Below are positions 6,254 to 63,712 of a DNA stretch of 64,000 nt, piece after piece; position 1 is the first letter of the stretch, and each line of letters opens with the position of its first letter. This DNA is from Rhodospirillales bacterium CG15_BIG_FIL_POST_REV_8_21_14_020_66_15. Lineage in GTDB: Bacteria > Pseudomonadota > Alphaproteobacteria > Rhodospirillales > Casp-alpha2. A model generated the notes under the pieces. That model saw only the letters and a list, made by a program, of their open reading frames with translations, was not told the origin of the DNA and made no database searches. The DNA is taken from NCBI GenBank assembly GCA_002781745.1, contig PFFW01000154.1, positions 6,515 through 70,514 on the forward strand, written 5' to 3'. Made by a program: the position numbers and the translations under genes.

Positions 6254-7880
6254 CTTCGAACACGATCCTGAAAAGGGTGAGATCGTCCGCATGGCAGGCG
6301 GCGATCTCATCCAGGTCACAGCGCAGGGCGCCGTCGTCCCTTGTGAAACCCGGGCCGTCGGTGAACATGGCGAACGGCGTGTTGCGTTCGGTCCGCCTGA
6401 ACGTCATGTCAAGGGGACTGGTCACGCGGTCCTTGATGGCGAGCAGGAAAGCGTACTCGATCCGCCGTTGGAAAACACGGCACGACATGACGAATGCCTG
6501 CGCGATTCCTCGCCCGTCGACGAGAAAAGAGAGGATCTCGCCATGATCTCCCGACTTATCGGTAAGTTTCGCAGTGAACAACCGGCCGCCATCGGAAAGC
6601 AGCCGGCTGACATTCTCTTCGCTCCATCGCTGACCGTTGAGGTTGAATTGATTGGTCTTGTTGATCAGTTGAATGGCCCGTGACCACGTTTCGGGCGTTC
6701 GCTCGAAAATCGTCAATTCCATATCCAGGCCGCGTAGGAAGTCCTCGACCGACTCCGCTTTTGCCGCCTGGTCGGCGACGGCCGCGCGGGCGCGATAAAG
6801 TTCGTTCCGACGACGGTCCTCGTCCGTCAGCGCGTCCCGGTGGAACAACAGGTTCAGTTCCGAGAACAAATTCGGCAGGGATGCCGAATCGCCGGGGAAA
6901 AGCACCGTCGCGACTTCGGGAAGAGCCGCGTTGACTTCGGCCAACTCGACCGGGTTGTCATCGACCATCACGATATTCGCGAGCCCCAAATTCAGGTTCC
7001 GGGCAATCGAGCGAACGGCGTCCGACTTGCTGCCGTAGCTCGATTCGAAGGCGATGAAATCATCTACGCCCAGCGGCATGCCGCCTTTTTCCAGCGGCGC
7101 GCGCGCGAGGTCCGGATCGTTTCTGCTGGCAACCGCCAGCATGATCCCGTCCCGCCGCAGGCGGCCGAGGTATGACTGGTAGATGAAATGCTTGTAGGAT
7201 TCCCCCTCGGCATCCGCGGAAACGTTTTCCGGACCGTCTTCTCCGACGGTGCCTCGCCACAGGCAGTTGTCGAGGTCCGTGACCAGCACCTTGCCGATGC
7301 CGCGACGGCCAGGAAGCATCCATTGCGCGGCGAGCGCCTCCGCCACGTCGGCAAGCCGATTTCCGGCGACGGGGGCACCCGAATGGAGATACGTCGTCAG
7401 GGAGAAAGCGTCCGGTCCCAGGATTCGCGCTCCCGCGCCGGCGGCGACAGACCGCAGGCCTTCGTCCAGCCTGGCCTGGTCGGCCGTGTTGCGAAAAACC
7501 GGAATGGCGGGCGTATCGATGTAGGCGACTGCGCCGAGACAGCGTTCGCTGATTCGCACGATCGTCTTCGCGCCCGCCGCGATCAGGTCTTCGGGCGGTT
7601 CGGGCGACTTCGGGCTCCCGCTGCGCCAGTCTGCCAACGGGCAAAGGTCCCAGGGCAGCACCAGGGCAAGCTCAGCCGTGCCGTCCGGCGCGGCCGCCAG
7701 GTGCTGTTGAAGGGTTCCGAAGGGCAAGCTGTCGATGCTGGCATTGATGCCGCGCTCGGCGAACGCGGCCCGGAGGTAGAGCACAAGATTGTCCAACATA
7801 CACGACGCGATCAGGCGCATTGGCTCGGCGGGTAACCCGGAAACGGCCTTGATCGCATTCCTGGCCTTTAGAAAACTCAC
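6246..7880 (-). CDS. fkbH: FkbH-like HAD-IIIC phosphatase / glyceryl-ACP synthase with C-terminal GNAT-like domain
   Basis: KVLVTDLDNCLWRG, VASRND, VDDNPVE, QLINKTNQFN, MSCRV. GTG 7880 overlaps the upstream stop (GTGA). Confidence 0.92.
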   Translation of the reverse strand: MSFLKARNAIKAVSGLPAEPMRLIASCMLDNLVLYLRAAFAERGINASIDSLPFGTLQQHLAAAPDGTAELALVLPWDLCPLADWRSGSPKSPEPPEDLIAAGAKTIVRISERCLGAVAYIDTPAIPVFRNTADQARLDEGLRSVAAGAGARILGPDAFSLTTYLHSGAPVAGNRLADVAEALAAQWMLPGRRGIGKVLVTDLDNCLWRGTVGEDGPENVSADAEGESYKHFIYQSYLGRLRRDGIMLAVASRNDPDLARAPLEKGGMPLGVDDFIAFESSYGSKSDAVRSIARNLNLGLANIVMVDDNPVELAEVNAALPEVATVLFPGDSASLPNLFSELNLLFHRDALTDEDRRRNELYRARAAVADQAAKAESVEDFLRGLDMELTIFERTPETWSRAIQLINKTNQFNLNGQRWSEENVSRLLSDGGRLFTAKLTDKSGDHGEILSFLVDGRGIAQAFVMSCRVFQRRIEYAFLLAIKDRVTSPLDMTFRRTERNTPFAMFTDGPGFTRDDGALRCDLDEIAACHADDLTLFRIVFEDA

Positions 7881-8974
7881 GGGGCGGCGCCCCCGGACAG
7901 GTCGAACGTGGCGCCGCTCATGAAGCGGGACGGGTTGTCGAGCACCCAATTTACCGAGTCGGCGGCCTCGTCCAGCGACATCAGGCGGCCCCACGGGGAT
8001 CGGTCCATGTTGGCCACCCTTGCCGCCGCCGATTGCTGCGCATTCATCCCGCCATCGAGAGCATCGAACCTGACGGATAGACAGCGCATGTCCTGGGCGC
8101 TCAATTCCATCGCAAGTACCTCAGTCAGGGTCGGGACGACCGCCTTGCCCATGGAATAGAGCGGCGCGCGCCAGAAGTGGCGTCCGCGTGACGCCGCGGT
8201 CGATCCGATGAGAACCAGCGTCGCGCCGGGTCCGCCCCGTTCAACCATGATCGACGCAAGCGAGATGCCCTGGGAAAGCGGCTCGACGAGTCCGGTTTCC
8301 AGCGCCGCCGCCGGATCCGGTAGGGCCAGCAGGCCGCAGTTGTCCTGCGCGGGCCAGCCGCAATGGACCACCGCGCGAACGGACGCGTCGCCGAGGCGCT
8401 CGAGCAGCCGTGCCCGGCCGGATGCGGTGTGGACCTCGTCGGCCCGCGAGACCGGAACGGCGACCGCGCCCAGTCGATTGCTCAGCGCCGTTCCCAAGCC
8501 CCCGGATGCGCCCGATATCAGGACGACCTGCGACGTCGCGTCCTCCGTGTTCGCGGGTCGCGTCTCCGAACCGGACGCGGGTGCGGCCCGCCCTGCGCCG
8601 TGGTAACCGAAGGCGTAGCGGGCCTCCACGTATCGCCGCCCGTCGGCGGCGCCGGTGATGACGACCGAGACCTGCCCGCCGTCGCCGGACTGGCGGTCGA
8701 CGCGCCCCTCGACCCGAAGCGTCAGCGGCGGCACCATGGGAGAAACGAACTTCAAGCGCATGTCGTGAAGGAGACATGCCTCGCCCGGAAGATGCATGCC
8801 CGCCATCCGCGATACCAGACCGGCGGCGTAGGCGCCGTGCAGTACGCGCCGTCGATAGGGCGTGCCGGCGGCATACGCGGCATTTGTGTGCAGCGGATTA
8901 TGATCGCCGGACAGGTCGGCGAACGCGTCCAGCGCGTCCTCGTCGACCGAAACCTCGAAGGCGTACTCCTTCAT
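7877..8974 (-). CDS. MaoC-like dehydratase fused to SDR (FabG-like) reductase
   Basis: N-terminal FADLSGDHNPLH...VLHG hot-dog motif; C-terminal ISGASGGLG and YSMGK. ATG 8974 overlaps the ACP stop. Confidence 0.88.
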   Translation of the reverse strand: MKEYAFEVSVDEDALDAFADLSGDHNPLHTNAAYAAGTPYRRRVLHGAYAAGLVSRMAGMHLPGEACLLHDMRLKFVSPMVPPLTLRVEGRVDRQSGDGGQVSVVITGAADGRRYVEARYAFGYHGAGRAAPASGSETRPANTEDATSQVVLISGASGGLGTALSNRLGAVAVPVSRADEVHTASGRARLLERLGDASVRAVVHCGWPAQDNCGLLALPDPAAALETGLVEPLSQGISLASIMVERGGPGATLVLIGSTAASRGRHFWRAPLYSMGKAVVPTLTEVLAMELSAQDMRCLSVRFDALDGGMNAQQSAAARVANMDRSPWGRLMSLDEAADSVNWVLDNPSRFMSGATFDLSGGAAP

Positions 8975-9210
8975 GGTCTGAGTTCGTCCACCAGAAGGGC
9001 GACGGATTGGTAGGACGTGAAGCGGTCGCGCTGCTCGCCGTTCAATTCCGTTCCGAGCTCGGCCTCGATGGCGGCAATGAAGGTTGCCGTGGCCAGGGAA
9101 TCCCATTTCTCGCAATTGATCTGGCGAAGGCTTCCCACATCGGTCTCTTCCGGCAGGTCGAGGACGACAAGAAAGATTTCCTTCAGCTTCGCTTGGGTTT
9201 CAGCGTCCAA
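8971..9210 (-). CDS. Acyl carrier protein
   Basis: Acidic protein of about 79 aa with a WDSL phosphopantetheine motif. TTG 9210 is preceded by AGGAGG (the track start is 9237). Confidence 0.88.
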   Translation of the reverse strand: MDAETQAKLKEIFLVVLDLPEETDVGSLRQINCEKWDSLATATFIAAIEAELGTELNGEQRDRFTSYQSVALLVDELRP

Positions 9211-11609: not shown

Positions 11610-12781
11610 GTCAATTGGGTCGCGATTTCCTTGGCGACGTACTCGACCTCCTCGTCCGTCATCGACGGGAAAAAGGGGATCGATAGTGTTCGCGCGTAAT
11701 GCGCCTCGGCCACGGGAAAGGCGCCTCCAGCAGGGGACAGTCGTGCCGCGTGGAAGGGTTGCCGGTGGACCGGGATGTAGTGGACCTGGGTGCCGATCCC
11801 GGCGTCGCGAAGCCCCGCCATAACGTCGCTGCGTCGCCGTCCCAGACGATCGAAGTCGACGTCGATCGTGTACAGGTGGAGACCGGATCTCGCGCGTTGA
11901 TCGGGCCGGGACTGCGGAAGGGCCACCTTGTCCAGTCCGGCAAAGCAGCCGTCGTAATAGGCGGCGATCTCCCGCCGCCGTGCGAGGAAGCTGTCCAGCC
12001 GGTTCAACTGCGCCACGCCGAGAGCGGCCTGCAGATCGGTCATCCGGTAGTTGAACCCGAGCGCCTGCTGCTCGTATCGCCAGGGTCCGTCCTCGTCGGG
12101 CAGGGATCCGGCGAAGCGGCCGGGATCCCGTTCGATACCGTGGTTCCGCAGCAGGCGGAGCCGCCGCGCGAGTTCGTCGTCGTTGGTCGTCACCGCGCCG
12201 CCCTCGCCCGTGGTGATCGGCTTGACGGGATGGAACGAGAACGCCGCCATGTCCGAAAAGGCGCAGCCGCCCACGGCCTCTCCGTTTTCGTGGGTGCCTC
12301 CAAGGGCGTGACAGGCGTCCTCGATGACGACCAGGCCTTCGGCGGCCCGTCGGAGCGCCTCGGACGATTGGGCCAGACCGCCATAGTGTACAGGCAGGAC
12401 GGCCCGCGCGTCGCCGTGATGCCGCTTGAAGTCGCCGACCGTTTCCGGCGACAGGCAGCGGCTGTCGGAATTGACGTCCAAGATCGTCACCTCGGCGCCG
12501 CAGTAGGTCGGCGCATTGGCGGTCGCAACGAAGGTCAGGTCCGCGACCCCGGCGCGGTCGCCGGGCCCGAGACCGGCGGCCAGGCAGGCCAGGTGAAGGG
12601 CGGCGGTGCCGTTGCAGACGGCGACGGCATGGCGGGCGCCGACGCGTTCGGCGAGCGCGCGTTCGAACCGTTCGACCGCGGGGCCCTGTGTCAGAAAGTC
12701 GCTTTTCAGAGCATCGACGACGGCGGCGATATCCGCCTCGCCGATGGTCTGGCGGCCGTATCCGAGGAACCGCGCGGTCAA
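11606..12781 (-). CDS. pseC: UDP-4-amino-4,6-dideoxy-N-acetyl-L-altrosamine transaminase (PLP, DegT family)
   Basis: FLGYGRQTI...SDFLTQGP, IEDACHALG, FSFHPVKPITTGEGG, LGFNYRMTD, QVHYIPVH. TTG 12781 with GGGAGA RBS, directly after pseB. Confidence 0.88.
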   Translation of the reverse strand: MTARFLGYGRQTIGEADIAAVVDALKSDFLTQGPAVERFERALAERVGARHAVAVCNGTAALHLACLAAGLGPGDRAGVADLTFVATANAPTYCGAEVTILDVNSDSRCLSPETVGDFKRHHGDARAVLPVHYGGLAQSSEALRRAAEGLVVIEDACHALGGTHENGEAVGGCAFSDMAAFSFHPVKPITTGEGGAVTTNDDELARRLRLLRNHGIERDPGRFAGSLPDEDGPWRYEQQALGFNYRMTDLQAALGVAQLNRLDSFLARRREIAAYYDGCFAGLDKVALPQSRPDQRARSGLHLYTIDVDFDRLGRRRSDVMAGLRDAGIGTQVHYIPVHRQPFHAARLSPAGGAFPVAEAHYARTLSIPFFPSMTDEEVEYVAKEIATQLT

Positions 12782-16132: not shown

Positions 16133-17059
16133 TCAGGCCGACAGTTCCTGCCGGTCGATGCGCAATCCGTGGGATTTGGATTCGAGCATCACTTCCGTCG
16201 GTCGCGCGTTCAGATAGACACAGCCATTGCAGGCAGGGTTCTCCTCGATCCGGCCGGTTGCATTCATGGATTGCAGATTCCGGCATTTCTCGCCGGTGAG
16301 GATTTCGTCAAGGGTCCGGTGCTGCAGGGAGCCCATGGACAGCGTGTAGTTGATGTCCATCGAACAGGGAATGACGTCACCGTAGATTCCGATAAGGATC
16401 TGGTCCATGTGCGTGACGCTTTTGCAGGGGCATCGGTCTTCCTGGCGCGGGCGCAGGTCCGGAAAGATGTTTGACCAGGCATGCGGTTTCCAGACTTCGA
16501 ATTCGTCCGCCGCATCCCAGTAGCGTTCCTTGATCAATTCGACGTCGCGCTCCATGCCGTCCAGCATCAACGTATAGACTTCGATCCAGACGGGATGGCC
16601 CGCGTGTTCGTTGATCTCGATGAATTCGTCGATTCTGGCCCGTGCCTTCTCCGCCAGCTTCCGGTCCTTATAGACCTTGTCACTGAACTCCTCGGAGTAG
16701 GCCAGGATCGAGAACCGCATGTGCGACGCAAGCTCCTCGGCGACGATGGCCTCGCTGAAGGGCCTGCGCCACACTTCCATGTTGGACGAAAGGCCGACCT
16801 TGAGTTGCGGCGCTTCCCTTTTGATGAATCGCAGGCGGTCGAGCAGAAAGCGGTCGCACGAGGCATCGCCCATGCCGCCGAACCGGATCAAGCTGTCGAT
16901 TTCATGATTGTCGCGCAGGTCCAGAATGATCTTCTCGAACAATTTCTGGTCCATGTAGCCGAAGCGGTGCCCATAGTGGTCTTCGCGCGGACAAACGACA
17001 CACTTGGCGTTGCAGATGGTCGTGGTTTCGATGCCGACGTATTTGAAGGTATGGGTCAT
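16133..17059 (-). CDS. Radical SAM protein with SPASM/twitch-like C-terminus
   Basis: CNAKCVVC (CxxxCxxC); C-terminal C...GDVIPC...GSL...CNGC. Confidence 0.88.
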   Translation of the reverse strand: MTHTFKYVGIETTTICNAKCVVCPREDHYGHRFGYMDQKLFEKIILDLRDNHEIDSLIRFGGMGDASCDRFLLDRLRFIKREAPQLKVGLSSNMEVWRRPFSEAIVAEELASHMRFSILAYSEEFSDKVYKDRKLAEKARARIDEFIEINEHAGHPVWIEVYTLMLDGMERDVELIKERYWDAADEFEVWKPHAWSNIFPDLRPRQEDRCPCKSVTHMDQILIGIYGDVIPCSMDINYTLSMGSLQHRTLDEILTGEKCRNLQSMNATGRIEENPACNGCVYLNARPTEVMLESKSHGLRIDRQELSA

Positions 17060-21678: not shown

Positions 21679-23580
21679 CTACCGCCCGCGGCGAAGACTC
21701 CCCATTTCCGGCGGGTCGCCGGCAAGGACCTCGAGATCGGTTACGACCTTGCGCAGGGAGCGGCCTTCAAGGTTCAGCCTCCGGCGCAGGGGATTGCCGA
21801 CGAGGAAGGTGAGCGCTTCCCATGCGAGGCGCGCGGTTTTCGTGGCCCCCCGGTAGCGCAGGTTGCGAAGCACGATCAGCGGAACCAGCACCCAGCGGAT
21901 TCGCGCGAACATCTCCGGGTAACAGATGATCGCCATGCCGACCTGCATGTTCCGGATCAGGCTCCAGAACGTCGGATAGGCCTCGTCGTCCCCGACAGTC
22001 AGGGTTTCGCGCCGCTGATGGATCGTGTCCGTCGTGGCGCTGCGGTCGACGAGGCGTTTGGGGTTGGCAAAGTATCCGCTGTCCGATTTGTCCCGTTCGA
22101 AATAGTTGGAACGTTCGAGCACCATCCGGCGGTAGTGCGCGCGGCCGAACTTCTTCTGATAGGCCATGAAGGTTTCAAGCTGGATCATCGGCCGCCATGC
22201 CTGGCACAGCAGGGTCGGATAGGGGGTGAAGTTCAGGGTGTTCGATTCGTCATGGGCGTTGGTGTCGGAAATTCTGAGCAGATAGGCCTCTTCGCCGTCG
22301 ACGCCGGCACCGATTAATCCCTGGTGCCGGGCGAATTCGTAGAGCGGCGTGCCCGGCAGCGCCTGCGCGTAGTTGATGGACAGGTCGGTGGGACATTGTG
22401 ACGGGCTTATGGACAGGCCGAACTTCGCAAAATCGGCGGTTTCGCGAATCGTTTCCGGCGTTTCGCCGGGCATTCCGACCACCAGCTGGATGATCGTGCG
22501 CAGCCCGGCCTCCACCGTCCATCGCATGGCATTGTAGTTGTCCCGGAGCGCGACCTTCTTCTCCATCACCTGAAGCATCTTTTCGCTGCCGGTCTCCATG
22601 CCGTAGATGATGCTGGAGCATCCCGCGTCCTTCATCAGGGCGATGATTTCGGGGTCGACGCAGTTCACGCGCATTCCGCCGACTTTCCACAGGACGTCGA
22701 GCGGCTTGATCTTGGCGCAGAACTCACGCAGCCATTTCCTGCTGGTGCCGAAATTTTCGTCGGCAATATCGACGAAGCCGACGTTGTACCGGTCGATCAC
22801 ATGCTTCAGCCGTTCGATCACGATGTCCACGGGAATGTAGCGGATTCCTTTCGTGAACCGGTGGCAGAAGGTGCATTTCGCCACGCATCCCTTCGCCGCG
22901 GGAATGGTGATCTGCGTCTTGTCGGCCCGTTCCGGCTCGTAGGCCCGCGGGTCGTCGCGAAAGCTGTCGGACGGCATGCCGTCGACCACGCCCGGCAGGA
23001 CGAACACTCCGATGTCGGATGCCCGCTCCAGGTCGGCCCAGTCGAAATCATAGACCTCCTCCGCCGGGAGCTGTTCCTCATAGCCGGTATTGACGAGATA
23101 GCCGTTGCGATCGAAAAGCACGATCCCCGGGATGTCGGAATATGCGGTTGGCTCCGTGGTCTTGTGACTGCGACGGACGATGTTCAGAAAGGTCTTTTCG
23201 CCTTCGCCCGAGACGCAAAGGTCGATGCCCGTCCGCTTCAGCAGAATCTCGGCGCTGGCCGCCAGATTGCCGCCGCACACGACGAGTGTTTCCGGAAGAT
23301 GCTTCTTCACGTCCGAGGAAAGCCGCTTCGTATAGGCATAGGCCGTGGAGACGACGGCGCTTATGCCCAATACCCGGGGCTTCCGCTCGAGAATATGGGC
23401 AAGTACCTCGTCGTAGGACGGCCGGTTGCCGTCGATGTCGAAGAACTCGACGTCGGGTTCACCGTGCATCTTCAGATATCGGATCAGGCTCAGGCTTCCG
23501 ATCGGCGGAAACGGCGTCGGTATCGGCCTGATCGGCGTGGTGACGATCATCGTATTCATGGTGATCCGCGCATCAGCCAT
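21679..23580 (-). CDS. Cobalamin-binding radical SAM protein
   Basis: N-terminal PPIGSLSL...GISAV B12-binding-like domain; AKGCVAKCTFC, IADENF, GMETGSEKML. Confidence 0.88.
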   Translation of the reverse strand: MADARITMNTMIVTTPIRPIPTPFPPIGSLSLIRYLKMHGEPDVEFFDIDGNRPSYDEVLAHILERKPRVLGISAVVSTAYAYTKRLSSDVKKHLPETLVVCGGNLAASAEILLKRTGIDLCVSGEGEKTFLNIVRRSHKTTEPTAYSDIPGIVLFDRNGYLVNTGYEEQLPAEEVYDFDWADLERASDIGVFVLPGVVDGMPSDSFRDDPRAYEPERADKTQITIPAAKGCVAKCTFCHRFTKGIRYIPVDIVIERLKHVIDRYNVGFVDIADENFGTSRKWLREFCAKIKPLDVLWKVGGMRVNCVDPEIIALMKDAGCSSIIYGMETGSEKMLQVMEKKVALRDNYNAMRWTVEAGLRTIIQLVVGMPGETPETIRETADFAKFGLSISPSQCPTDLSINYAQALPGTPLYEFARHQGLIGAGVDGEEAYLLRISDTNAHDESNTLNFTPYPTLLCQAWRPMIQLETFMAYQKKFGRAHYRRMVLERSNYFERDKSDSGYFANPKRLVDRSATTDTIHQRRETLTVGDDEAYPTFWSLIRNMQVGMAIICYPEMFARIRWVLVPLIVLRNLRYRGATKTARLAWEALTFLVGNPLRRRLNLEGRSLRKVVTDLEVLAGDPPEMGSLRRGR

Positions 23581-54480: not shown

Positions 54481-55902
54481 ATGCCGGGCATGCGCGTACG
54501 CAAGACCCTGGTCGGGCCGCGGCTGCGGCAGCTGCGCCGCGAGCACCGCCAGACCCAGGCGGAGATGGCCGAGGCGCTGGGCGTCAGCACCGCCTATGTG
54601 AACCTGCTGGAGAACAACCAGCGGTCCCTGTCGGTGACCATGCTGATGTCGCTGTCGGACGCCTACGGCGTCGACTGGCGCGACCTCATCAAGGACGAGG
54701 GCTCGACGATGCTGGCCGACCTGCGCAACACCGTGCAGGACCCCATCTTCGACGCCACCACGCCCGACCTGCAGGAATTGCGCGCCGCCATCGACCACGC
54801 GCCCAAGCTGGTGGAAAGCTTCCTCCACCTCTACCGCAGCCACCGCAACGCGCTGGACAACATGATGCGCCTGGGCAGCGAGGGCATGCCCGCCGACCTT
54901 CTGAAATCGACGCCGGAGCGCATCATCCACGACTTCTTCCGCGACCACTCCAACCACTTCCCGGCGCTCGAGGCGGCGGCCGAACGCCTGCGCGACGCCA
55001 CCCCCTGCGAGGTCGACGACGTCTACATGGTGCTCAAGGGGCGGCTCATGCGCGTGCACGGGATCGAGGTGCGCACGGCCTCGGTCGAGGACATGGGCCA
55101 GGCGCTGCGCATCTATGACGAGACGGTCTCCACGGTCCACCTGTCGGAAGCGCTGGATCACCAGAACCGGGTGTTCCAGCTCGCCCACGTGCTGTGCCTG
55201 GTCGAGCTGCCGTCGGTCCTGCAGGACCTCACCGCCGGCAGCGCCCTGCGCTCCGAGACCGCCGTCGCGCGCTGCCATGTGGAACTCGCGAACTATTTCG
55301 CCGCCGCCTTCCTCATGCCCTACGCCCCGTTCTTCGAGACGGCGGAGGAGACGCGCTACGACGTCGACCGTCTGGCCGCCGCCTTCGGCGTGTCCTTCGA
55401 ACAGGTCTGCCACCGCCTCACCACCCTGCAGCGCGAGGGGGCCAGGGGCGTGCCGTTCTTCTTCCTGCGCGTCGACAAGGCGGGCAACGTCACCAAGCGC
55501 TTCAACTCGACCTCGTTCAACATCGCCGACTACGGCGGCGCCTGTCCGGTGTGGAACATCCACACCTCGTTCCGCACGCCCGGCGTCATCGTGCCGCAGT
55601 TCGTGGAACTGCCCGACGGCGAACGCTTCTTCACCATCTCCCGCACCACGGAACGCCCCGTGTTCTCGCGCGACACCCAGGACCGGCGGCTGGCGCTGTC
55701 GCTCGGCTGCGAGTTGAAGCACGCGCACCGGCTCGCCTACGCCGCCCCCTTCAACATCCGCGACGAGGAAATGTTCGCGCCGATCGGCATCAACTGCCAC
55801 CTGTGCCCGCGCAAGAACTGCTCGCAGCGCGCCCACCAGCCGCTGATGATGGAACTGCCCATCGACACCAACCGCCGCGGCAACACGCGCTATGAAAGCT
55901 GA
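54481..55902 (+). CDS. XRE-family short-chain fatty acyl-CoA regulator (ScfR/RamB/PccR type)
   Basis: N-terminal [57 protein letters not shown]-terminal [16 protein letters not shown]. Confidence 0.92.
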
Positions 55903-56027
55903 CGGCCCGCCGTCTCCGCTTGCGGCTCCTTTTTGACCACAGCCGCCGTCGCAATGTGATTCGACATTCGCCCGCCGCCGACGGACCATGGGGGAAATCC
56001 CATCATCTTTCCCGGAGGACCTTCCCC

Positions 56028-56483
56028 ATGGCGAAGATCAACGTCAACGGCAGGACCGTCACGGTCGACGCCGACGGCGCCACCCCCCTGTTGTGGGTGC
56101 TGCGCGAGAACCTGGACCTGACCGGCACCAAGTACGGCTGCGGCATCGCCGCCTGCGGCGCCTGCACCGTGCATGTCAACGGCGCGGCCGTGCGATCCTG
56201 CGCCCTGCCGCTGGAGGCCGTCGCCGAAACCGACAGGATCGTCACCATCGAGGGCCTGTCCCGCGACGGCTCCCATCCGGTGCAGCGGGCGTGGATGGAC
56301 CTCGACGTGCCGCAATGCGGTTACTGCCAGGCGGGCATGATCATGGCGGCGGCGGCGCTGCTCGCCAGGACGCCCAGGCCGACGGACGCCGACATCGACG
56401 CCGAAATCTCCAACATCTGCCGCTGCGGCACCTACCAGCGCGTGCGCGCGGGCATCCACCGCGCCGCCGGCGGCAAGGCCTGA
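56028..56483 (+). CDS. iorA: Isoquinoline 1-oxidoreductase alpha-like (2Fe-2S) subunit
   Basis: [41 protein letters not shown] 56028 with GGAGG RBS. Confidence 0.9.
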
Positions 56484-56500
56484 CGGGGGAGGACAGGGAC

Positions 56501-58705
56501 ATGACGACGAACCCGACACGGACCATCAATCCGACCCGCCGCGCCTTCGTGACCGGCTCGGCGGCCGCGGCCGCGGGACTGGTGCTGGGCTTCACGGTGC
56601 CGCTCGGCCGCGGCGGCGGCGCGGCGCTGGCCGGCGCCGGACATACGGACGAGATCACCGCCTGGGTCGTGGTACGGCCCGACGAAACCGTGATCATCCG
56701 CATCGCCCGCTCGGAGATGGGGCAGGGCACGCTGACCGGGCTGGCCCAGCTTGTCGCCGAGGAGCTGGCCTGCGACTGGTCCAAGGTCGCCACGGAATAC
56801 GTCCCGCCGTCCCGCAACCTGACGCGCGGCGGCGCGTGGAAAAGCTTCCAGACCACGGGCAGCCGGGGCATCCGCGGTTCCCACGACTACGTGCGCGAAG
56901 GCGGGGCGGCCGCGCGCGAGATGCTGATCGCCGCCGCGGCCCGGGCCTGGGGCGTGCCGGCGGGCGAGTGCCGGGCCGACAAGGGCGTCATCACCCACGG
57001 CCCTTCGGGCAAGACGACGACCTTCGGCAAGGTCTGTGCGGCCGCCGCCGGGCTGCCGGTGCCGGACAAGGTCGCGCTCAAGAACCCCAAGGACTGGACC
57101 ATCGCCGGAAAGCCGCTCAAGCGGCTCGACACCGCCGACAAGCTGACCGGCAAACAGGTCTACGGCATCGACGTCAGGCTCCCCGGGATGCTCAACGCGG
57201 CGATCCGCCAGTACCCCCTGTTCGGCGCCAGGCTCAGATCGTTCGACGCGGCGAAGGCGCTTGCCATGCCCGGCGTGAGGAAGGTCGTCAAGGTGGGCGA
57301 CGACGCCGTCGCCGTGGTCGCCGACACGTGGTGGCAGGCCAAGACGGCGCTCGAGGCCGTCGACGTCGTGTGGGACGAGGGCCCCCACGGCAGGATCGAC
57401 GGCGCCGACATCGCCGCCATGGTCGACGAGGGCCTGGACGCCAAGGACGCCTTCGTCGGCAACAAGGCGGGCGACGCCGCCGGCGCCATCGCCGCATCGG
57501 TCAAGCAGGTGCAGGCGACCTATTCCTATCCGTTCCAGCACCACGCGACCATGGAGCCCATGAACGCGACGGCGCTGTGGACGCCCGAACGCTGCGAGGT
57601 CTGGTGCCCGACCCAGTCGGCCGAGGACGCCCTGGCCGCCGCGGCCTTCGCGGCGGGCCTGACGCCCGACAGATGCGAGATCCACCGCATGCACCTGGGC
57701 GGCGGCTTCGGGCGGCGGGGTGCCGGGCCCATCCACGACTATGTCCATCAGGCGGTGCGCATCGCCAGGGAGATGCCGGGCACGCCGGTGAAGCTTCTGT
57801 GGACGCGCGAGGAGGACATGACCCACGGCGCCTACCATCCGGTGACGCAGTGCCGCCTCACGGCCGGGATCGACGATCAGGGCGGGATCACGGGCCTGCG
57901 CGTGCGCATCTCGGGACAGTCGATCCTGGCGGGCATCATGCCGGGGCGGCTCGCCGGCGGGATGGACCCGGTCGTCTTCCAGTGCCTCGCGCCCAAGGGC
58001 GACCACGCGATCGCCTATTCGTTCCCCAACCTGCTGGTCGACCACGCCATGCGCAACCCGCACCTGCGCCCCGGCTTCTGGCGCGGCGTCAACGCCAACC
58101 AGAACGCCATCTACCTGGAATGCTTCATGGACGAACTGGCCCATGCCGCCGGGCAGGACCCGCTCGCCTTCCGCCTGAAGTACATGAAGGACCATCCGAA
58201 AAGCCGGGCGGTGCTGCAGGCCGTGGCCGACAAGGCGGGATGGGGCAGGCCGGCGGCCAAGGGCGTCCACCGCGGCCTCGCCCAGTGCAAGGCGTTCGCC
58301 AGCTACGTCGCCGCCTGCGCCGAGGTCTCGGTGTCGGACGGCGGCGTGGTGAAGATCCACCGCATCGTCGCCGCCACCGACAGCGGCCACGCCGTCAACC
58401 CGCAGCAGATCGAAGCCCAGGTCGAAGGCTCCTTCGTCTACGGCCTGTCGGCCATGCTGATGGGCGAATGCACGGTCAAGGACGGCCGCGTCGAACAGCG
58501 GAACTTCGACACCTATGAGGTCATGCGCATCAAGGACATGCCCCGGGTGGAAACCATGGTGATGCCGTCGGGCGGCTTCTGGGGCGGGGTCGGCGAGCCG
58601 ACCATCGCCGTCGCCGCGCCGGCCGTCCTCAACGCGATCTTCGCCGCCACCGGCAAGCGCGTCCGCGACTTCCCCTTGAAGCATTCGGGGCTGCGCCTGG
58701 CGTGA
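56501..58705 (+). CDS. iorB: Isoquinoline 1-oxidoreductase beta-like molybdopterin subunit with Tat-like leader
   Basis: TRRAFV leader, RSEMGQG, TTGSRGIR, HATMEPMN, GGGFGRR, GGVGEP. The substrate cannot be inferred. Confidence 0.9.
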   Translation: MTTNPTRTINPTRRAFVTGSAAAAAGLVLGFTVPLGRGGGAALAGAGHTDEITAWVVVRPDETVIIRIARSEMGQGTLTGLAQLVAEELACDWSKVATEYVPPSRNLTRGGAWKSFQTTGSRGIRGSHDYVREGGAAAREMLIAAAARAWGVPAGECRADKGVITHGPSGKTTTFGKVCAAAAGLPVPDKVALKNPKDWTIAGKPLKRLDTADKLTGKQVYGIDVRLPGMLNAAIRQYPLFGARLRSFDAAKALAMPGVRKVVKVGDDAVAVVADTWWQAKTALEAVDVVWDEGPHGRIDGADIAAMVDEGLDAKDAFVGNKAGDAAGAIAASVKQVQATYSYPFQHHATMEPMNATALWTPERCEVWCPTQSAEDALAAAAFAAGLTPDRCEIHRMHLGGGFGRRGAGPIHDYVHQAVRIAREMPGTPVKLLWTREEDMTHGAYHPVTQCRLTAGIDDQGGITGLRVRISGQSILAGIMPGRLAGGMDPVVFQCLAPKGDHAIAYSFPNLLVDHAMRNPHLRPGFWRGVNANQNAIYLECFMDELAHAAGQDPLAFRLKYMKDHPKSRAVLQAVADKAGWGRPAAKGVHRGLAQCKAFASYVAACAEVSVSDGGVVKIHRIVAATDSGHAVNPQQIEAQVEGSFVYGLSAMLMGECTVKDGRVEQRNFDTYEVMRIKDMPRVETMVMPSGGFWGGVGEPTIAVAAPAVLNAIFAATGKRVRDFPLKHSGLRLA

Positions 58706-58723
58706 CGCGCCGACGCGCGGAAG

Positions 58724-58767
58724 ACGAAAAAAGGCGGGACTCGGTAGGTCCCGCCTTTGCTTTTCGT
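58724..58767. terminator. Bidirectional Rho-independent terminator
   Basis: AAAGGCGGGAC/GTCCCGCCTTT 11-bp stem (58730-58758) flanked by ACGAAAA and TTTTCGT. Confidence 0.88.
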
Positions 58768-58778
58768 TCACCGCGCCG

Positions 58779-58840
58779 GATCAGCGCATCCGGTTCTGGC
58801 GGTTCTCGATCAGGTCGTCGACCACCGCCGGGTCGGCCAG
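58779..58840 (-). repeat. 62-bp direct repeat, displaced copy of the acs 3' end
   Basis: Identical to 61764-61825; includes the acs stop codon and encodes [19 protein letters not shown]. Confidence 0.95.
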
Positions 58841-58842
58841 GG

Positions 58843-59346
58843 TCATTTCGTCGACCGGGCCCGCAAGGCGTCGAGAACATCTTGGACAAGGATCTCGGGC
58901 GGCCGTTCGATGTCCAGCGTCAACGCGTCCAGAGGCTCTTCCAAAGTGGCGAACTGACTGTCGAGAAGCGCCGTTGGTATGAAATGCCCTTTCCGCGCCT
59001 CGATGCGCTGGGCAATGGTGCCTCGCCGTCCCTTCAGGTAAACCAGAAAGAACGGCGCGGGACCGAGCGCCGCTCGATAGTCGCGTTTCAACGCGGAACA
59101 AGCGATGACCAATGGTTGCAAAGGGCGTCGGTCGCAGAGTATCTGCGAAATCGTGGCAAGCCATGACCTTCGGTCGTCATCGTCTAGAGGTAATCCGGCA
59201 GCCATCTTGGCAATGTTCCATGGAGGGTGAAAATCGTCGGCGTCTACAAACGTACCGTCCAATGCCGCCGCCAACATGCGTCCCACCGTGGTCTTCCCGG
59301 CTCCGGAAACGCCCATCACGACGACGGGGATATCCGGGAGCATCAC
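58843..59346 (-). CDS. gntK: Gluconokinase
   Basis: VVMGVSGAGKTTVG, DADDFHP, PLDDDDRRSWL, VIACSALKRDYR, GHFIPTALLDSQFATLEEP. Confidence 0.95.
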   Translation of the reverse strand: MMLPDIPVVVMGVSGAGKTTVGRMLAAALDGTFVDADDFHPPWNIAKMAAGLPLDDDDRRSWLATISQILCDRRPLQPLVIACSALKRDYRAALGPAPFFLVYLKGRRGTIAQRIEARKGHFIPTALLDSQFATLEEPLDALTLDIERPPEILVQDVLDALRARSTK

Positions 59347-60743
59347 GATGCGTTCCCGAGCGACGGAACGTGTCCAAGCGTTCCGTCAAGCCGGCGGAAG
59401 CCGTGCTCTCCAAAACGGTCACGAAGCATCTGGACAAATCGGGTCGAAAGGGGCCGGTCTCCGAACCCGTCCAGATAGGCAAGACTCGTGCTCAGTCCGG
59501 GCACGGGAATGCCGGCCGAGATACCGAAAACGGTAAGCTGCCGCAATGCGTCCAATCCTTCCGCCGCGACGGCATCCAGGTACCTCGTTCGCGGATTATC
59601 CGGCGGCGTGGATTCGTCCTGCAGCGCCTGTGCCAGCTCTTCCGTCATGCGGCCCTGGAGGATGCTTCCGGCGCGCCACACACGGACAATGCGACATAGC
59701 GGGAGGGGGGCGCCAAACCGGTCGCCCGTATGGGAGAGCAAGGCAAGCCCCTGTTGGAAGGATGCGGCTGAGACGGCGCTCATGGCGGAAGCGGCCAGGG
59801 AGCCCACATCGCCCACCGCTAGAGACGCGCCGCCCGCGGAGGCCGCTTTCGTGATCGCTCGGCGGCGGAACAGAGCGTTCGCGGAAAAAGTCCGAAAATC
59901 GACGGCGGCTGCAATCGAGGGAACTGCGACACCGGCTTCAGATGCTGCGGTCACGGACCAAGCGCCGGTGCCATTCTGCGCCGCGCGATCGTCGACGGCG
60001 TCAACCAGAAACCCCGTTCCTTCCGGGTCAGGGTAGGCGGCGGCCTCAGCGGCGATCTGCGTGAGAAACCCTGCCGCGGGCGACTGTTCCATTCGTGCGA
60101 AGATTTCGCCGACCTGATTCGCGGCCAATCCACATCCTTGGGTGAGCAGGGCATGGAGGTCAGCCAGGGCCTGCATTACTGCGTATTCGATCCCGTTGTG
60201 CACCATTTTCACGTAGTGTCCGGCCGCCCCGGCGCCGAACCGATCGACGCATGGTTCGCCGTTGAACCGGGCGGCGATGCGCTTGAGCACCGGTCCGGTG
60301 CGGTTCCAGGCGTCCAGCGGCCCGCCCGCCATAAGAGCGGGCCCTCGCCGTGCTCCGGACGGTCCTCCGGATACCCCGAGTCCCATCAAGGCCAATCCGC
60401 TCTCATGCAACAGCGCCTGACGCCGCTCGGTGTCCTGCGGGTGAGAATTCCCCGCGTCGATGACGACGTCGTGTGGTGAAAGATGGGGCGTAAGCGCGGC
60501 GAGGCAGTCATCGACGGGCGTGCCGCTGCGGACCATCAGAAGAATTATACGGTTGGGCTTCAGACCGCGCGCGAGGTCTTCTGCGCCATTCGCGTTTGCA
60601 ATGCCCAGGGCCGTCACTTCGGGCGAGTTGCGGATTTCGGGAGATGGCTCCCAGGCCCGAACGTGGATTCCGTGCGACTGCATCGCGGCTGCCAGGCCCC
60701 GTCCCATGGGCCCCAGGCCGATCAGTCCGATTTCGTCATTCAT
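59343..60743 (-). CDS. gnd: 6-phosphogluconate dehydrogenase (decarboxylating)
   Basis: IGLIGLGPMG, DAGNS, GVSGGPSGARRGP, GHYVKMVHNGIEY, WRAGSIL, QMLRDRFGEHGF. Confidence 0.9.
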   Translation of the reverse strand: MNDEIGLIGLGPMGRGLAAAMQSHGIHVRAWEPSPEIRNSPEVTALGIANANGAEDLARGLKPNRIILLMVRSGTPVDDCLAALTPHLSPHDVVIDAGNSHPQDTERRQALLHESGLALMGLGVSGGPSGARRGPALMAGGPLDAWNRTGPVLKRIAARFNGEPCVDRFGAGAAGHYVKMVHNGIEYAVMQALADLHALLTQGCGLAANQVGEIFARMEQSPAAGFLTQIAAEAAAYPDPEGTGFLVDAVDDRAAQNGTGAWSVTAASEAGVAVPSIAAAVDFRTFSANALFRRRAITKAASAGGASLAVGDVGSLAASAMSAVSAASFQQGLALLSHTGDRFGAPLPLCRIVRVWRAGSILQGRMTEELAQALQDESTPPDNPRTRYLDAVAAEGLDALRQLTVFGISAGIPVPGLSTSLAYLDGFGDRPLSTRFVQMLRDRFGEHGFRRLDGTLGHVPSLGNAS

Positions 60744-60772
60744 GACAGTCTCTGCCCAATCCTACCCCGATC

Positions 60773-61639
60773 CTAGCCGTTGAATCTGTGAGCGGGAAGG
60801 CCGGTCGTGCCTGGCGAGGCTCGGAAGAGGGCTCCGGAAAGAGGCGCCTCGGCGAGAGCGCCCGGGCTCAATCCGATCCGCGCCGACGTAACGAAAAGGT
60901 CTTTAAGTTCAGGGCCGCCGAAAGCGCAGCGGGTCGGTCTCGGAACGGGCATGGGGATAACCTGGTCAATGGTGCCGTCGGGCAGGAAGCGGGTCACCCG
61001 CCAGCCGTCCCAATGCGCGACCCAAAGGCCGCCCTCGGCATCCACGGTGAGCCCATCGGGGAAGCCGTCATCGCTGGAGAACCTTGCAAAACACCTGGGG
61101 TTGGTCGCTGCCGCGAATTCCACATCGTAGTCAAACGCCAAAATTGTCCGTTCAACGCTGTCGGAAAAGTACAGTCGATCTCCACCCGGACTGAATGCCG
61201 GTCCGTTGCAGACCACAAACCTGCCGAACAGGTGGCAAACTTCGCCGCTGGGCTCCAACGCATAGACGTTGCCGGTGGGTTGTCTTTCGCAGTCATCCAT
61301 GGATCCGGCGATGAACCGGCCACCCGGATCGCAATTGCCGTCGTTGAATCTATTGCCCGGCAAGTGGCGTTCGGGGTCGCAGATCGGTGCAAGGCCGCCC
61401 GTCTGGGCGTCGAGATAGGCGAAACCAGCGCGGGTCGCCGCCACAAGGCCGCCATCGCGTCGCAGCGCGACGGCGCCAACCTCCGTCGATAGGGGGATAG
61501 TTCGCCTATCTTCGGTGACGGGCGAAAGAACATGAAGTTTACGACCTTTGACATCGAGCCAGATCAGACATTGATTGCGCTCGTCCCAGATCGGGCCTTC
61601 CCCAAGTTCCGCTTTCGCTTCCCAAACAGGAACGACCAT
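60773..61639 (-). CDS. SMP-30/gluconolactonase family protein
   Basis: ELGEGPIWD, NRFNDGNCDPGGRF, CNGPAFSP, GFPDGLTVDAEG, PTRCAFGG. Confidence 0.93.
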   Translation of the reverse strand: MVVPVWEAKAELGEGPIWDERNQCLIWLDVKGRKLHVLSPVTEDRRTIPLSTEVGAVALRRDGGLVAATRAGFAYLDAQTGGLAPICDPERHLPGNRFNDGNCDPGGRFIAGSMDDCERQPTGNVYALEPSGEVCHLFGRFVVCNGPAFSPGGDRLYFSDSVERTILAFDYDVEFAAATNPRCFARFSSDDGFPDGLTVDAEGGLWVAHWDGWRVTRFLPDGTIDQVIPMPVPRPTRCAFGGPELKDLFVTSARIGLSPGALAEAPLSGALFRASPGTTGLPAHRFNG

Positions 61640-61688
61640 GGATCACAAGCCTGTAAGAGGGGTTCCTGCCTCTGATCGCGAATATCCG

Positions 61689-61726
61689 AAAAGGTACCCG
61701 GCGGACTGAAAAACCCGCCGGGTACC
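61689..61726 (-). terminator. Rho-independent terminator downstream of acs, inside the islet
   Basis: GGTACCCGGCGG/CCGCCGGGTACC perfect 12-bp stem (61693-61726) followed by TTTT on the minus strand. Confidence 0.75.
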
Positions 61727-61763
61727 GAAATCCGTACGTTTCCCAATCCGAAACCGACAGATC

Positions 61764-61825
61764 GATCAGCGCATCCGGTTCTGGCGGTTCTCGATCAGGT
61801 CGTCGACCACCGCCGGGTCGGCCAG
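61764..61825 (-). repeat. 62-bp direct repeat, copy within functional acs
   Basis: Identical to 58779-58840. Confidence 0.95.
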
Positions 61826-63712
61826 CGTCGAGGTGTCGCCCAGGTTGGAGAAGTCGTCCTCGCCGATCTTGCGCAGGATGCGGCGCATGATCTTGCCCGA
61901 CCGCGTCTTGGGCAGGCCCGGCGCCCATTGCAGCCAGTCGGGGCTGGCGATCGGGCCGATCTCCTTGCGCACCCACTGGACGAGTTCCTTGCGCAGGTCG
62001 TCCGACGGCGCCTCGCCGGCGTTGAGGGTCACGTAGGCGTAGATGCCCTGTCCCTTGATGTCGTGCGGCGCGCCGACCACGGCGGCCTCGGCGACCTTGG
62101 GATGGGCGACCAGCGCGCTTTCCACCTCGGCCGTGCCCATTCGGTGGCCCGACACGTTGATGACGTCGTCGACGCGTCCGGTGATCCAGTAGTAGCCGTC
62201 GGCGTCGCGGCGGCAGCCGTCGCCGGTGAAGTACTTGCCCTTGTAGGTCGAGAAGTAGGTGTCCTCGAACCGCTTGTGGTCGCCATAGACGGTGCGCATC
62301 TGGCCGGGCCAGCTGTCGATGATGCAGAGGTTGCCCTCGGCCGCCCCCTCGAGCACCTTGCCGTCGGCGTCGACGATCTGCGGCTCGACGCCGAAGAAGG
62401 GCCGCGTGGCGGACCCGGGCTTCAGCGCCGTGGCGCCCGGCAGCGGCGTGATCAGGATGCCGCCCGTTTCCGTCTGCCACCAGGTATCGACGATCGGGCA
62501 GCGGCCGTCGCCGACCACGTTGTAGTACCATAGCCAGGCTTCCGGGTTGATCGGCTCTCCCACCGTGCCGAGCAGGCGGATCGACTTGCGTGAGGTCTTC
62601 TTCACCGGGCCGTCGCCGTCGCGCATGAGGGCGCGGATCGCCGTCGGCGCGGTGTAGAAGATTTCCACGTTGTGCTTGTCGCAGACCTGCCAGAAGCGCG
62701 AGGTGTCCGGATAGTTGGGCACGCCCTCGAACATCAGCGTGGTCGCGCCGTTGGCGAGCGGACCGTAGACGATGTAGCTGTGGCCGGTGACCCAGCCGAC
62801 GTCGGCCGTGCACCAGAAAATCTCGCCGTCCCTGTAGTCGAACACGTACTGGTGCGTCATGGAGGCGTAGACCAGATAGCCGCCGGTGGTGTGCAGCACG
62901 CCCTTGGGCTGGCCCGTGGAGCCCGAGGTATAGAGGATGAACAGCGGGTCTTCCGCGTTCATCTCCTCGGGCGCGCAGTCGGCGGAGGCGGCCTCGGTGA
63001 CGTCGTGGTACCACACGTCGCGGCCGTCGACCCAGTGGATCGCCCCGCCCGTGCGCTTGACGACGATGACGCTGGTGACCGACGGGCACTTGGCGCAGGC
63101 GGCGTCCGTGTTGGCCTTCAGCGGGATCGGCCGGCCGCCACGCAGGCCCTCGTCGGCGGTGACGACCATGACGCAGTCGGAATCGTGGATGCGCTGGGCC
63201 AGCGAGTCCGGCGAGAACCCGCCGAACACCACCGAATGAATGGCGCCGATGCGCGTGCAGGCCAGCATGGCATAGGCCGCTTCGGGGATCATCGGCATGT
63301 AGATGCACACGCGGTCGCCGCGCTTCACGCCCCGCGCCTTCATGGCGTTGGCCAGGCGGCACACGTGCTCGTGCAGTTCGCGATAGGTGATCTTCTTGTC
63401 GTCCTTGGGGTCGTCGCCTTCCCAGATGATGGCGACCTGGTCGCCCCTGGTCGCCAGGTGACGGTCGATGCAGTTGGCGGACGCGTTCAGGGTGCCGTCC
63501 TCGAACCATTTGATCGACACGCTGCCGTAGTTGAAATCGACGTCCTTGACCTTGGTGTACGGCTTGATCCAGTCGACGCGCTTGCCGTGCTCGCCCCAGA
63601 ACGCCGCCGGGTCGTCGACCGACTGCTTGTACATTTCCAGGTACTGCTCGTTGGTGCACAGCGACGCCTTGGCGACGGCCTCGGGCACCGGAAAGATATG
63701 CTCTTCAGACAT
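61766..63712 (-). CDS. acs: Acetyl-CoA synthetase
   Basis: [66 protein letters not shown]. Confidence 0.97.

Follow-up and report, generated by a model that had tools for sequence, protein, structure and literature searches.

Units of genes flanked by direct duplications of their target, of variable length above 30 bp, and devoid of mobility genes have been described as insertions with long target duplication (PMC2853133). They show deviant GC, and their repeats often span stop sites, with the target gene remaining intact (Furuta, Abe & Kobayashi 2010, PMC2853133). As relayed in PMC2853133, the class goes back to Nobusato et al. 2000 (Gene 259:99), and a duplication templated from the recipient was its original conception there; the published mechanism is unresolved (PMC2853133). 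At rhs and type VI secretion system (T6SS) effector–immunity loci, displacement of the 3' (C-terminal) end by homology-facilitated illegitimate recombination was proposed (Kirchberger et al. 2017, PMC5361080). The minimal mobile elements of Neisseria (Saunders & Snyder 2002), in the outline given in PMC3787668, are whole-gene cassettes between conserved flanks, presumably exchanged via flanking homology. Site-specific integration can also leave a displaced gene end, as with e14 and phage 21 in icd, where icd is kept whole by a surrogate end and its displaced end, icdC, is found on the opposite side of the element (Hill et al. 1989, as summarised in PMC13626634), and cis-mobilizable elements (CIMEs), which derive from integrative and conjugative or mobilizable elements (ICEs and IMEs), retain attL and attR after loss of the integrase (PMC5704250). 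The locus considered here lies in a stretch of 64,000 nucleotides, the window, from contig PFFW01000154.1 (positions 6,515 to 70,514 of the forward strand) of Rhodospirillales bacterium CG15_BIG_FIL_POST_REV_8_21_14_020_66_15. In it, a three-gene operon for gluconate catabolism stands behind acs (acetate-CoA ligase), between a working and a displaced copy of the 62-bp end of that gene. The reading favoured for its origin, with about an even chance of being correct, is that host recombination brought the operon in, by homology at the acs side and by an illegitimate joint at the far side, with no acs-specific integrase; an earlier note, made from the letters of the window alone, had held capture by recombination only as a fallback.

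The two copies of the repeat, at 58779-58840 and 61764-61825 (both minus strand), are identical at 62/62 positions and are the only two copies of this sequence in the whole 3.85-Mb draft genome; outside them, just 11 of the 19 next bases agree. The repeat holds the last 19 codons of acs, the stop codon (61766-61768 in the right copy) and two bases past the stop. The copies are separated by 2923 bp (2985 bp with one copy included), and a direct repeat longer than 30 bp, an insert shorter than 20 kb and a repeat sequence unique to the locus are all found at acs. The right copy is the working end of an intact acs gene (61766..63712, minus strand; TIGR02188, 1040 bits, above the cut-off), which forms the right conserved flank. 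The left copy is a displaced, non-functional acs 3' end, contiguous with a native terminator, and the pair resembles attL/attR-like direct repeats with the target gene reconstituted. On its inner side, the left copy is 2 bp away from the stop codon of gntK (58843-58845), and on its outer side it lies 20 bp from a bidirectional intrinsic terminator, term1 (58730-58758), detected in a terminator scan of both strands (fold of -37 to -40 kcal/mol, z of -4.4 to -4.9). Next to it lies an iorB-like gene (56501..58705, plus strand), convergent with acs, which bounds the variable locus as its conserved flank on the left and codes for the large subunit of a molybdopterin-dependent oxidoreductase (Pfam MoCoBD_1/2; NCBIfam xanthine-dehydrogenase-family matches below cut-off), whose product is called as 734 aa in metagenome contigs. 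In the present arrangement, term1 is predicted to terminate both the iorB transcript and that of the gluconate operon. The exact duplication of the acs end, its displaced copy beside a terminator shared with iorB and the short distance to the gntK stop had all been described in the earlier note, and they stand as described.

An open reading frame (ORF) of 127 aa (58781-59164, minus strand) runs in another frame of gntK, enters the displaced acs end and finishes in the C-terminal 19 residues of Acs. No family matches it, and it is in all likelihood spurious, with a risk of mis-annotation as a gene. For annotation purposes, neither the displaced 62-bp copy nor this ORF should be called as a gene.

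Between the 62-bp copies lie genes for a gluconolactonase, a 6-phosphogluconate dehydrogenase and a gluconokinase, all on the minus strand, together with a terminator-bearing spacer, and nothing more. The first gene of the operon, gnl (60773..61639), encodes a protein of the SMP-30/gluconolactonase (SGL) family (Pfam SGL, E 1.6e-80). It is followed by gnd (59343..60743), for a Gnd-like protein of the 6-phosphogluconate dehydrogenase family (Pfam 6PGD and NAD_binding_2), which scores 361 bits in NCBIfam, under the equivalog cut-off of 413. The last gene is gntK (58843..59346), for a gluconokinase (TIGR01313, 154 bits against a cut-off of 113.75) that is full length against its counterpart in the congener G010. 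The spacer, IGR2 (61640..61763, minus strand), is 124 bp long and islet-borne; it harbors a hairpin with a 13-bp stem (61693-61726) and a U-tract (fold of -42.9 kcal/mol, z of -4.4), placed directly after the acs stop and ahead of the presumed operon promoter. What was gained behind a core gene, with no dedicated mobility enzyme, is thus a complete catabolic module, whose route leads from gluconolactone to gluconate, 6-phosphogluconate and ribulose-5-phosphate.

The GC content at third codon positions (GC3) is 0.67 in gntK, 0.71 in gnd and 0.68 in gnl, against 0.94 in acs and iorB and 0.95 in the upstream regulator gene, and the values of the cargo genes fall within the lowest 2.5-5% of about 2700 gene-like ORFs of the genome. 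The copy of the operon in G010 is similarly low (0.65-0.68, against 0.90). Judged by its composition, the three-gene operon is foreign, that is, an insertion. The earlier view that the genes are inserted, and not ancestral, is borne out by this GC3 and by their presence at acs in only one of 15 congeners. That the islet has no integrase also holds, as the three metabolic genes fill the insert: no recombinase, integrase remnant, transposase or other mobility gene appeared in the Pfam and NCBIfam annotation of the islet genes, no terminal inverted repeats pairing the islet ends were found, and Rfam families gave no match in 58000-62500. The genome has six tyrosine-recombinase and three serine-recombinase matches, all of them on other contigs. 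Since one of the repeats abuts a stop codon, there is no room for the arm sites of an attachment (att) site. A DNA transposon was considered and discarded, as there are neither inverted repeats nor a transposase, and the length of the duplication varies (62 bp here, 66-143 bp at the other loci described below).

The genome is a draft of 198 contigs (3.85 Mb, 3.9% contamination), and the structure could in principle be a chimeric join over the 62-bp repeat between two strain variants. Some assemblies do break at the repeat, with short contigs (L054) that end inside it, 60 bp on each end, as expected for a graph with k of about 61. However, the same structure is present in at least seven independent metagenome assemblies, with matching contigs in ENA (ERZ27293412, ERZ27293413, ERZ27293414), in JGI (3300025007, 3300005237, 3300025850, 3300004208), in others and in a Logan run. 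At an identity of 99.99-100% to the window, the contigs jointly cover both junctions. More than one independent assembly runs across each junction, among them MEGAHIT assemblies with k = 141 in their contig names, which exceeds the length of the repeat, and no alternative path was recovered. Misassembly is unlikely, and a chimeric join of the kind described has hardly any chance of being the explanation. Among the metagenome assemblies matched there was no empty-site or circle-junction contig, and exact-protein look-ups of acs, gluconolactonase, iorB and ilvE returned occupied forms only. The structure is thus genuine and, to the extent that assemblies show it, fixed in the population.

For comparison, 16 species genomes of the genus were used, which share about 80% DNA identity, and the acs locus was fetched and oriented in 15 congeners. 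Their homology with the window breaks off at two points, the iorB stop and the acs stop. Right after the acs terminator, an M81/MlrC-family gene is found in 12 of the 15; the other occupants behind acs are a small ORF only in G013, another gene in G005 and the gluconate operon in G010, and a small ORF adjoins iorB in four congeners. The alternative cassettes between the two stops are hence MlrC, a small ORF, both of them, the other gene of G005, the operon, and the operon plus displaced end of the window genome, which has no MlrC ortholog anywhere. Homology limits at both stops, together with such varied occupants, identify the iorB/acs site as a cassette-swap locus. In G010, the only one of the 15 with the operon at this site, the same three genes stand between iorB and acs, collinear with the window and with the same acs boundary. 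That genome has neither the duplication nor the genus-type terminator, and its convergent operons are only about 21 bp apart.

Each of the 15 congener loci has one acs end, and neither an integrase nor a second acs end was found at any of them. A comparison of 400 genomes of the order with the acs end gave no obvious second end, with two candidates scored per genome and second matches unresolvable. The exact empty site, iorB-term1-acs, for which the earlier note had suggested a comparison of relatives, occurs in none of the 15 congeners, most of which hold the MlrC-like gene at that place. Of the other cargo and integrases that the note proposed to look for at acs 3' ends, the cargo was encountered, in the form of the alternative cassettes, and the integrases were absent from the 15 loci. 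The contrary outcome contemplated there, in which all relatives carry the three genes without the duplication, is not what was observed, as G010 alone does so.

Variation in the genus also extends to the stretch between the gene of an HTH-M78-ScfRs regulator and acs (54481-58705 of the window, congener loci L017-L031). The iorAB genes occur there in the window genome and nine congeners, and a GGDEF sensor gene takes their place in G003, G012 and G002. Neither iorAB nor the GGDEF gene is present between regulator and acs in G009 and G004, and G005 is unassigned in this count.

The key comparison concerns the sequence downstream of the acs stop. In 13 congeners (all but G010 and G005), a hairpin aaaggcgggg...ccccgcctttttt is located some 30-40 bp past this stop. 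In the window, the genus-type terminator, which is term1, stands behind the displaced copy, and the left repeat plus term1 aligns with the acs end and terminator of the congeners; IGR2 stands behind the working acs. The start of IGR2, TGATC, is the same as in G010, and its hairpin has a positional counterpart in G010 between acs and the operon, with weak sequence similarity. On this alignment, the displaced copy is the native acs end, still joined to the genus-typical acs terminator. As it is attached to its native terminator, in silico loss of 2985 bp gives iorB, terminator and acs, so the restored order that the earlier note had described is obtained, with the displaced end joined to a terminator of the genus type. 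Read in the same way, the edge of the repeat at acs stop+2 is the point at which islet-type and genus-type alleles diverge, and no breakpoint. The only novel joint, therefore, would be the illegitimate one between gntK stop+2 and acs -60 (58841..58842), which has no counterpart in G010. The mechanistic clue of the locus resides here, in that one repeat boundary is a homology limit at the stop codon and a congener holds the cargo without the repeat. Microhomology at the joint (11/19 similarity, a shared TCGACG hexamer) was considered and rejected, because the gntK stop would have been lost in a crossover at that point.

The operons of G010 and the window share 67-73% protein identity, against 85-88% for the flanks, and the two genomes are not sisters by the acs tree. 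The closest relative of the gluconolactonase is that of G010 (73%), and relatives of at least 50% identity occur in only seven other genomes among the 400 of the order. A scan of genome contigs gave relatives at 37-54% only, the metagenome scan 60% at best and the plasmid search weak partial matches only, so that no donor closer than G010 came out of the genome, metagenome and plasmid searches. Distant loci carry the same three-gene module away from acs. The acs gene itself is mosaic: its 5' third (positions 1-675) groups with G003 at 100/100 support, and its 3' third (positions 1251-1947) does not, being nearest to G010 (92%). Homologous exchange has therefore touched this flank gene.

Direct repeats on the same contig were scanned genome-wide, and at least four more islets were recovered in which the repeat is the last 66-143 bp of a gene and ends 0-3 bp from its stop, with one to three low-GC3 genes as cargo and no recombinase. 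Between ilvE and corA (locus L215), a 126-bp repeat (C63:7248-7373 and 9021-9146, 97.6% identical) encloses a 1.65-kb low-GC insert with one 451-aa ORF. The two genes are adjacent, leaving an empty site, in G006, G010, G013, G008 and G015; both ilvE copies have substitutions specific to this lineage, and the insert is carried by two metagenome contigs. In the displaced ilvE copy, the stop has changed from TAG to TGG. Behind a gene named from its sequence as an OPT-family transporter gene (locus L227; C42:15097-15162 and 16316-16381), the last 66-75 bp are repeated with differences at 16/75 positions, and the 1.15-kb insert carries one ORF with a GC3 of 0.59 and no Pfam or PADLOC match; this locus is empty in at least 12 congeners. 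Of the two OPT copies, the one on the gene has a native-looking inner part and looks foreign close to the stop, and the displaced one shows the opposite arrangement. This reciprocal mosaic hints at a crossover inside the repeat, the informative sites being too few for significance. At panC (locus L216; C99:21131-21273 and 23153-23268), the repeat spans about 143 bp, is 75% identical with a 27-nt indel and a stretch of 42 bp exact, and flanks about 1.9 kb of low-GC3 cargo with TetR-family and methyladenine-glycosylase-like (Tag-like) genes; no clear empty site was found in the congeners searched. The fourth lies at a small gene named from its sequence as XRE-type HTH (locus L228; C135:10709-10822 and 12028-12141), where the repeat measures 114 bp, is 96.5% identical and reaches 3 bp beyond the stop, and the 1.2-kb insert, with a GC of 0.49, holds one 373-aa ORF without family match. 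PADLOC gave no match on the cargo of these other islets. With five such scars in a 3.85-Mb genome, displaced gene ends might serve as a general marker in searches for genes gained without an integrase.

Three further repeats of the genome differ from this type. At C152:4681-4725/7704-7748, an exact 45-bp copy of a tRNA 3' end flanks 3.0 kb of low-GC DNA with small ORFs and no integrase. At C159:2301-2460/3392-3551, 1.1 kb, also with no integrase, is flanked by a repeat of 160 bp, 89% identical, whose start lies in the 3' end of a tRNA. The third, of 260 bp (C26:6286-6545 and 7858-8117, 97% identical), lies inside a single 1172-aa ORF with low-GC DNA between its copies; it has the look of a duplication within a large protein gene and not of a stop-anchored islet.

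The favoured model proposes that the gnl-gnd-gntK operon came in on DNA that already had it directly behind an acs gene, the order found in G010 today. The acs-side end would have recombined by homology, which would explain why no discontinuity is seen at the acs stop, and the far end, 2 bp past the gntK stop, would have become attached, with no homology involved, at a point 60 bp upstream of the stop of the resident acs. Two routes may be envisaged, namely one-sided homologous plus illegitimate recombination of a linear fragment, or a single Campbell-type crossover with a circularised fragment that contained 62 bp of acs. The resident last 62 bp and the native terminator would thereby be displaced 2985 bp downstream, where the terminator would end the new operon, and the product would be a pure insertion, with acs intact and its old end shifted downstream. 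The order of these events is inferred, as are the nature of the donor and the type of joint. The pattern that is present at acs consists of one homologous junction, one non-homologous junction and a resident 3' end kept downstream. Homology-facilitated illegitimate recombination is the process for which de Vries & Wackernagel 2002 and Prudhomme et al. 2002 are reportedly cited. ComEC is present in the genome. Moreover, five different protein-gene targets in one genome argue against dedicated integrases, and a general homology-guided route fits them better.

Several points weigh against this model. Both 62-bp copies are identical, which means either that the donor shared these 62 bp, as a conspecific or near relative, or that both copies were templated from the recipient. 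With a conspecific donor, in turn, there would be homology in both flanks, and a clean double crossover should as a rule occur much more often. Neither a donor nor an empty-site genome of this lineage was seen in which microhomology at the joint or a donor tract in acs could be traced. The mosaicism of acs may have arisen at another time than the insertion, and the 16 differences in the OPT repeat fit a crossover inside the repeat by either RecA or an integrase. Ku was not found in the genome, which makes circularisation of the non-homologous end-joining type unlikely. Dating of the event from the identity of the repeat was also tried and is weak, as zero changes in 62 bp indicate only a neutral divergence under about 1-2%.

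It could be argued, as a doubtful extension of the host-recombination model, that the lineage repeatedly gains accessory modules via one integrase-free route, a RecA-driven "tail-swap cassette" cycle. In such a cycle, cargo linked to a surrogate end of a housekeeping gene would enter by a host-recombination crossover inside that end, and the flanking repeats could then let the cargo loop out and re-enter conspecifics. If it operates, the acs, ilvE, OPT, panC and XRE loci would all bear its mark, and the range of repeat identity from 100% to 75% would reflect successive events.

The earlier note had preferred a site-specific origin, and the corresponding rival is a cis-mobilizable or satellite element, CIME-like, whose attL and attR would be the 62-bp copies at the acs 3' end and whose integrase would act in trans or have been lost. 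The acs islet does share the design of e14 in icd and of CIMEs, with its direct repeats, its target gene made whole again and its native end displaced; the recombinase matches elsewhere in the genome (six tyrosine, three serine) could supply the activity, the genome has two tRNA-anchored integrase-less islets (C152, C159), and the hinted reciprocal mosaic of the OPT repeat also fits a crossover inside the repeat. However, the islet holds neither a recombinase nor a remnant of one, and its repeat, 2 bp from a stop codon, leaves no space for arm sites. No integrase and no second acs end occur at the 15 congener loci, none being evident in the coarse scan of 400 genomes either, and in G010 the cargo occupies this boundary without any repeat. 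The view of acs as the attachment site of a site-specific recombinase is not sustained. In addition, five protein-gene targets in one genome would demand five specificities, 62 identical bases between a foreign element and the acs of one lineage are hard to explain, and neither an empty-site nor a circle contig appeared in seven or more metagenomes. This origin is accordingly considered unlikely, though it deserves some weight. The idea of a minimal or reduced mobile element at acs is supported in part, by the anatomy, namely the repeats and the displaced end, and no dedicated recombinase or cognate element came to light at the loci searched. Nor is the 3' end of acs an unusual kind of target, as had been thought, since 3' ends of genes are used elsewhere, by e14 in icd and by insertions with long target duplication.

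A true target duplication, in which foreign DNA without flanking homology is caught at a staggered break or in the course of replicative repair, with both copies templated from the recipient, would account for the identity of the 62-bp copies, for the lineage-specific substitutions in both ilvE copies and for a length that varies over five loci from 62 to about 143 bp, like in the published class. It leaves unexplained why the repeat ends 0-3 bp from the stop at all five loci and why the acs-proximal spacer resembles that of G010 and starts at the same boundary; moreover, the OPT repeat differs at 16/75 positions although its cargo is unameliorated (GC3 0.59), and Ku is lacking among the genes found. 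It is therefore regarded as rather improbable. A secondary rearrangement would instead start from a G010-like allele, into which a later conspecific fragment carrying iorB, term1 and the acs end entered via iorB homology and was joined illegitimately beside gntK. The final structure would be the same, importing the terminator together with 62 bp of acs; a G010-type allele exists, identical copies are expected between conspecifics, and the outcome would place a terminator between convergent operons that are only about 21 bp apart in G010. On the other hand, this sequence of events requires an islet-free iorB-term1-acs allele, which is seen in no genome, at the ilvE and OPT loci comparison with the congeners clearly marks the cargo as the newcomer, and the unameliorated GC3 argues for a recent arrival of the cargo. 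Its probability is consequently set low, and host recombination is retained as the favoured origin.

Compared with the known systems, the integrase-dependent ones share the most conspicuous features of the acs islet, since e14/phage 21 and CIMEs also have a protein-gene or att-flanked site, a displaced end and a reconstituted gene. They depend, however, on a site-specific integrase, carried now or once, whereas at acs neither an integrase or its remnant nor a cognate element or an excision product came to light, and no cognate ICE or IME using the acs end is present at the 15 congener acs loci. Minimal mobile elements resemble the iorB/acs site in that relatives hold differing cassettes between conserved genes, with no mobility genes; they need no flanking duplication, whereas the acs allele has one, and the Neisseria comparison concerns close relatives, whereas the genomes here belong to different species about 80% identical and are not strains. 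The rhs and T6SS loci share with the acs islet the homology anchor in a conserved gene, the illegitimate far joint and the resident 3' end kept downstream as a remnant. They involve polymorphic toxin genes with functionally differing ends, whereas acs is a housekeeping gene whose surrogate and displaced ends are identical, and at acs the illegitimate joining is deduced. Descriptively, the acs islet fits best among insertions with long target duplication, a known, integrase-free kind, with which it shares an insert of less than 20 kb, a repeat of more than 30 bp, the lack of mobility genes and a deviant GC. Those insertions carry restriction-modification cargo and the acs islet a metabolic operon, so that the class would be extended past restriction-modification to ordinary metabolic functions. 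The acs islet differs from them further in that a congener carries this cargo, at the boundary shared with the window, and has no duplication, an observation in favour of a homology-guided entry.

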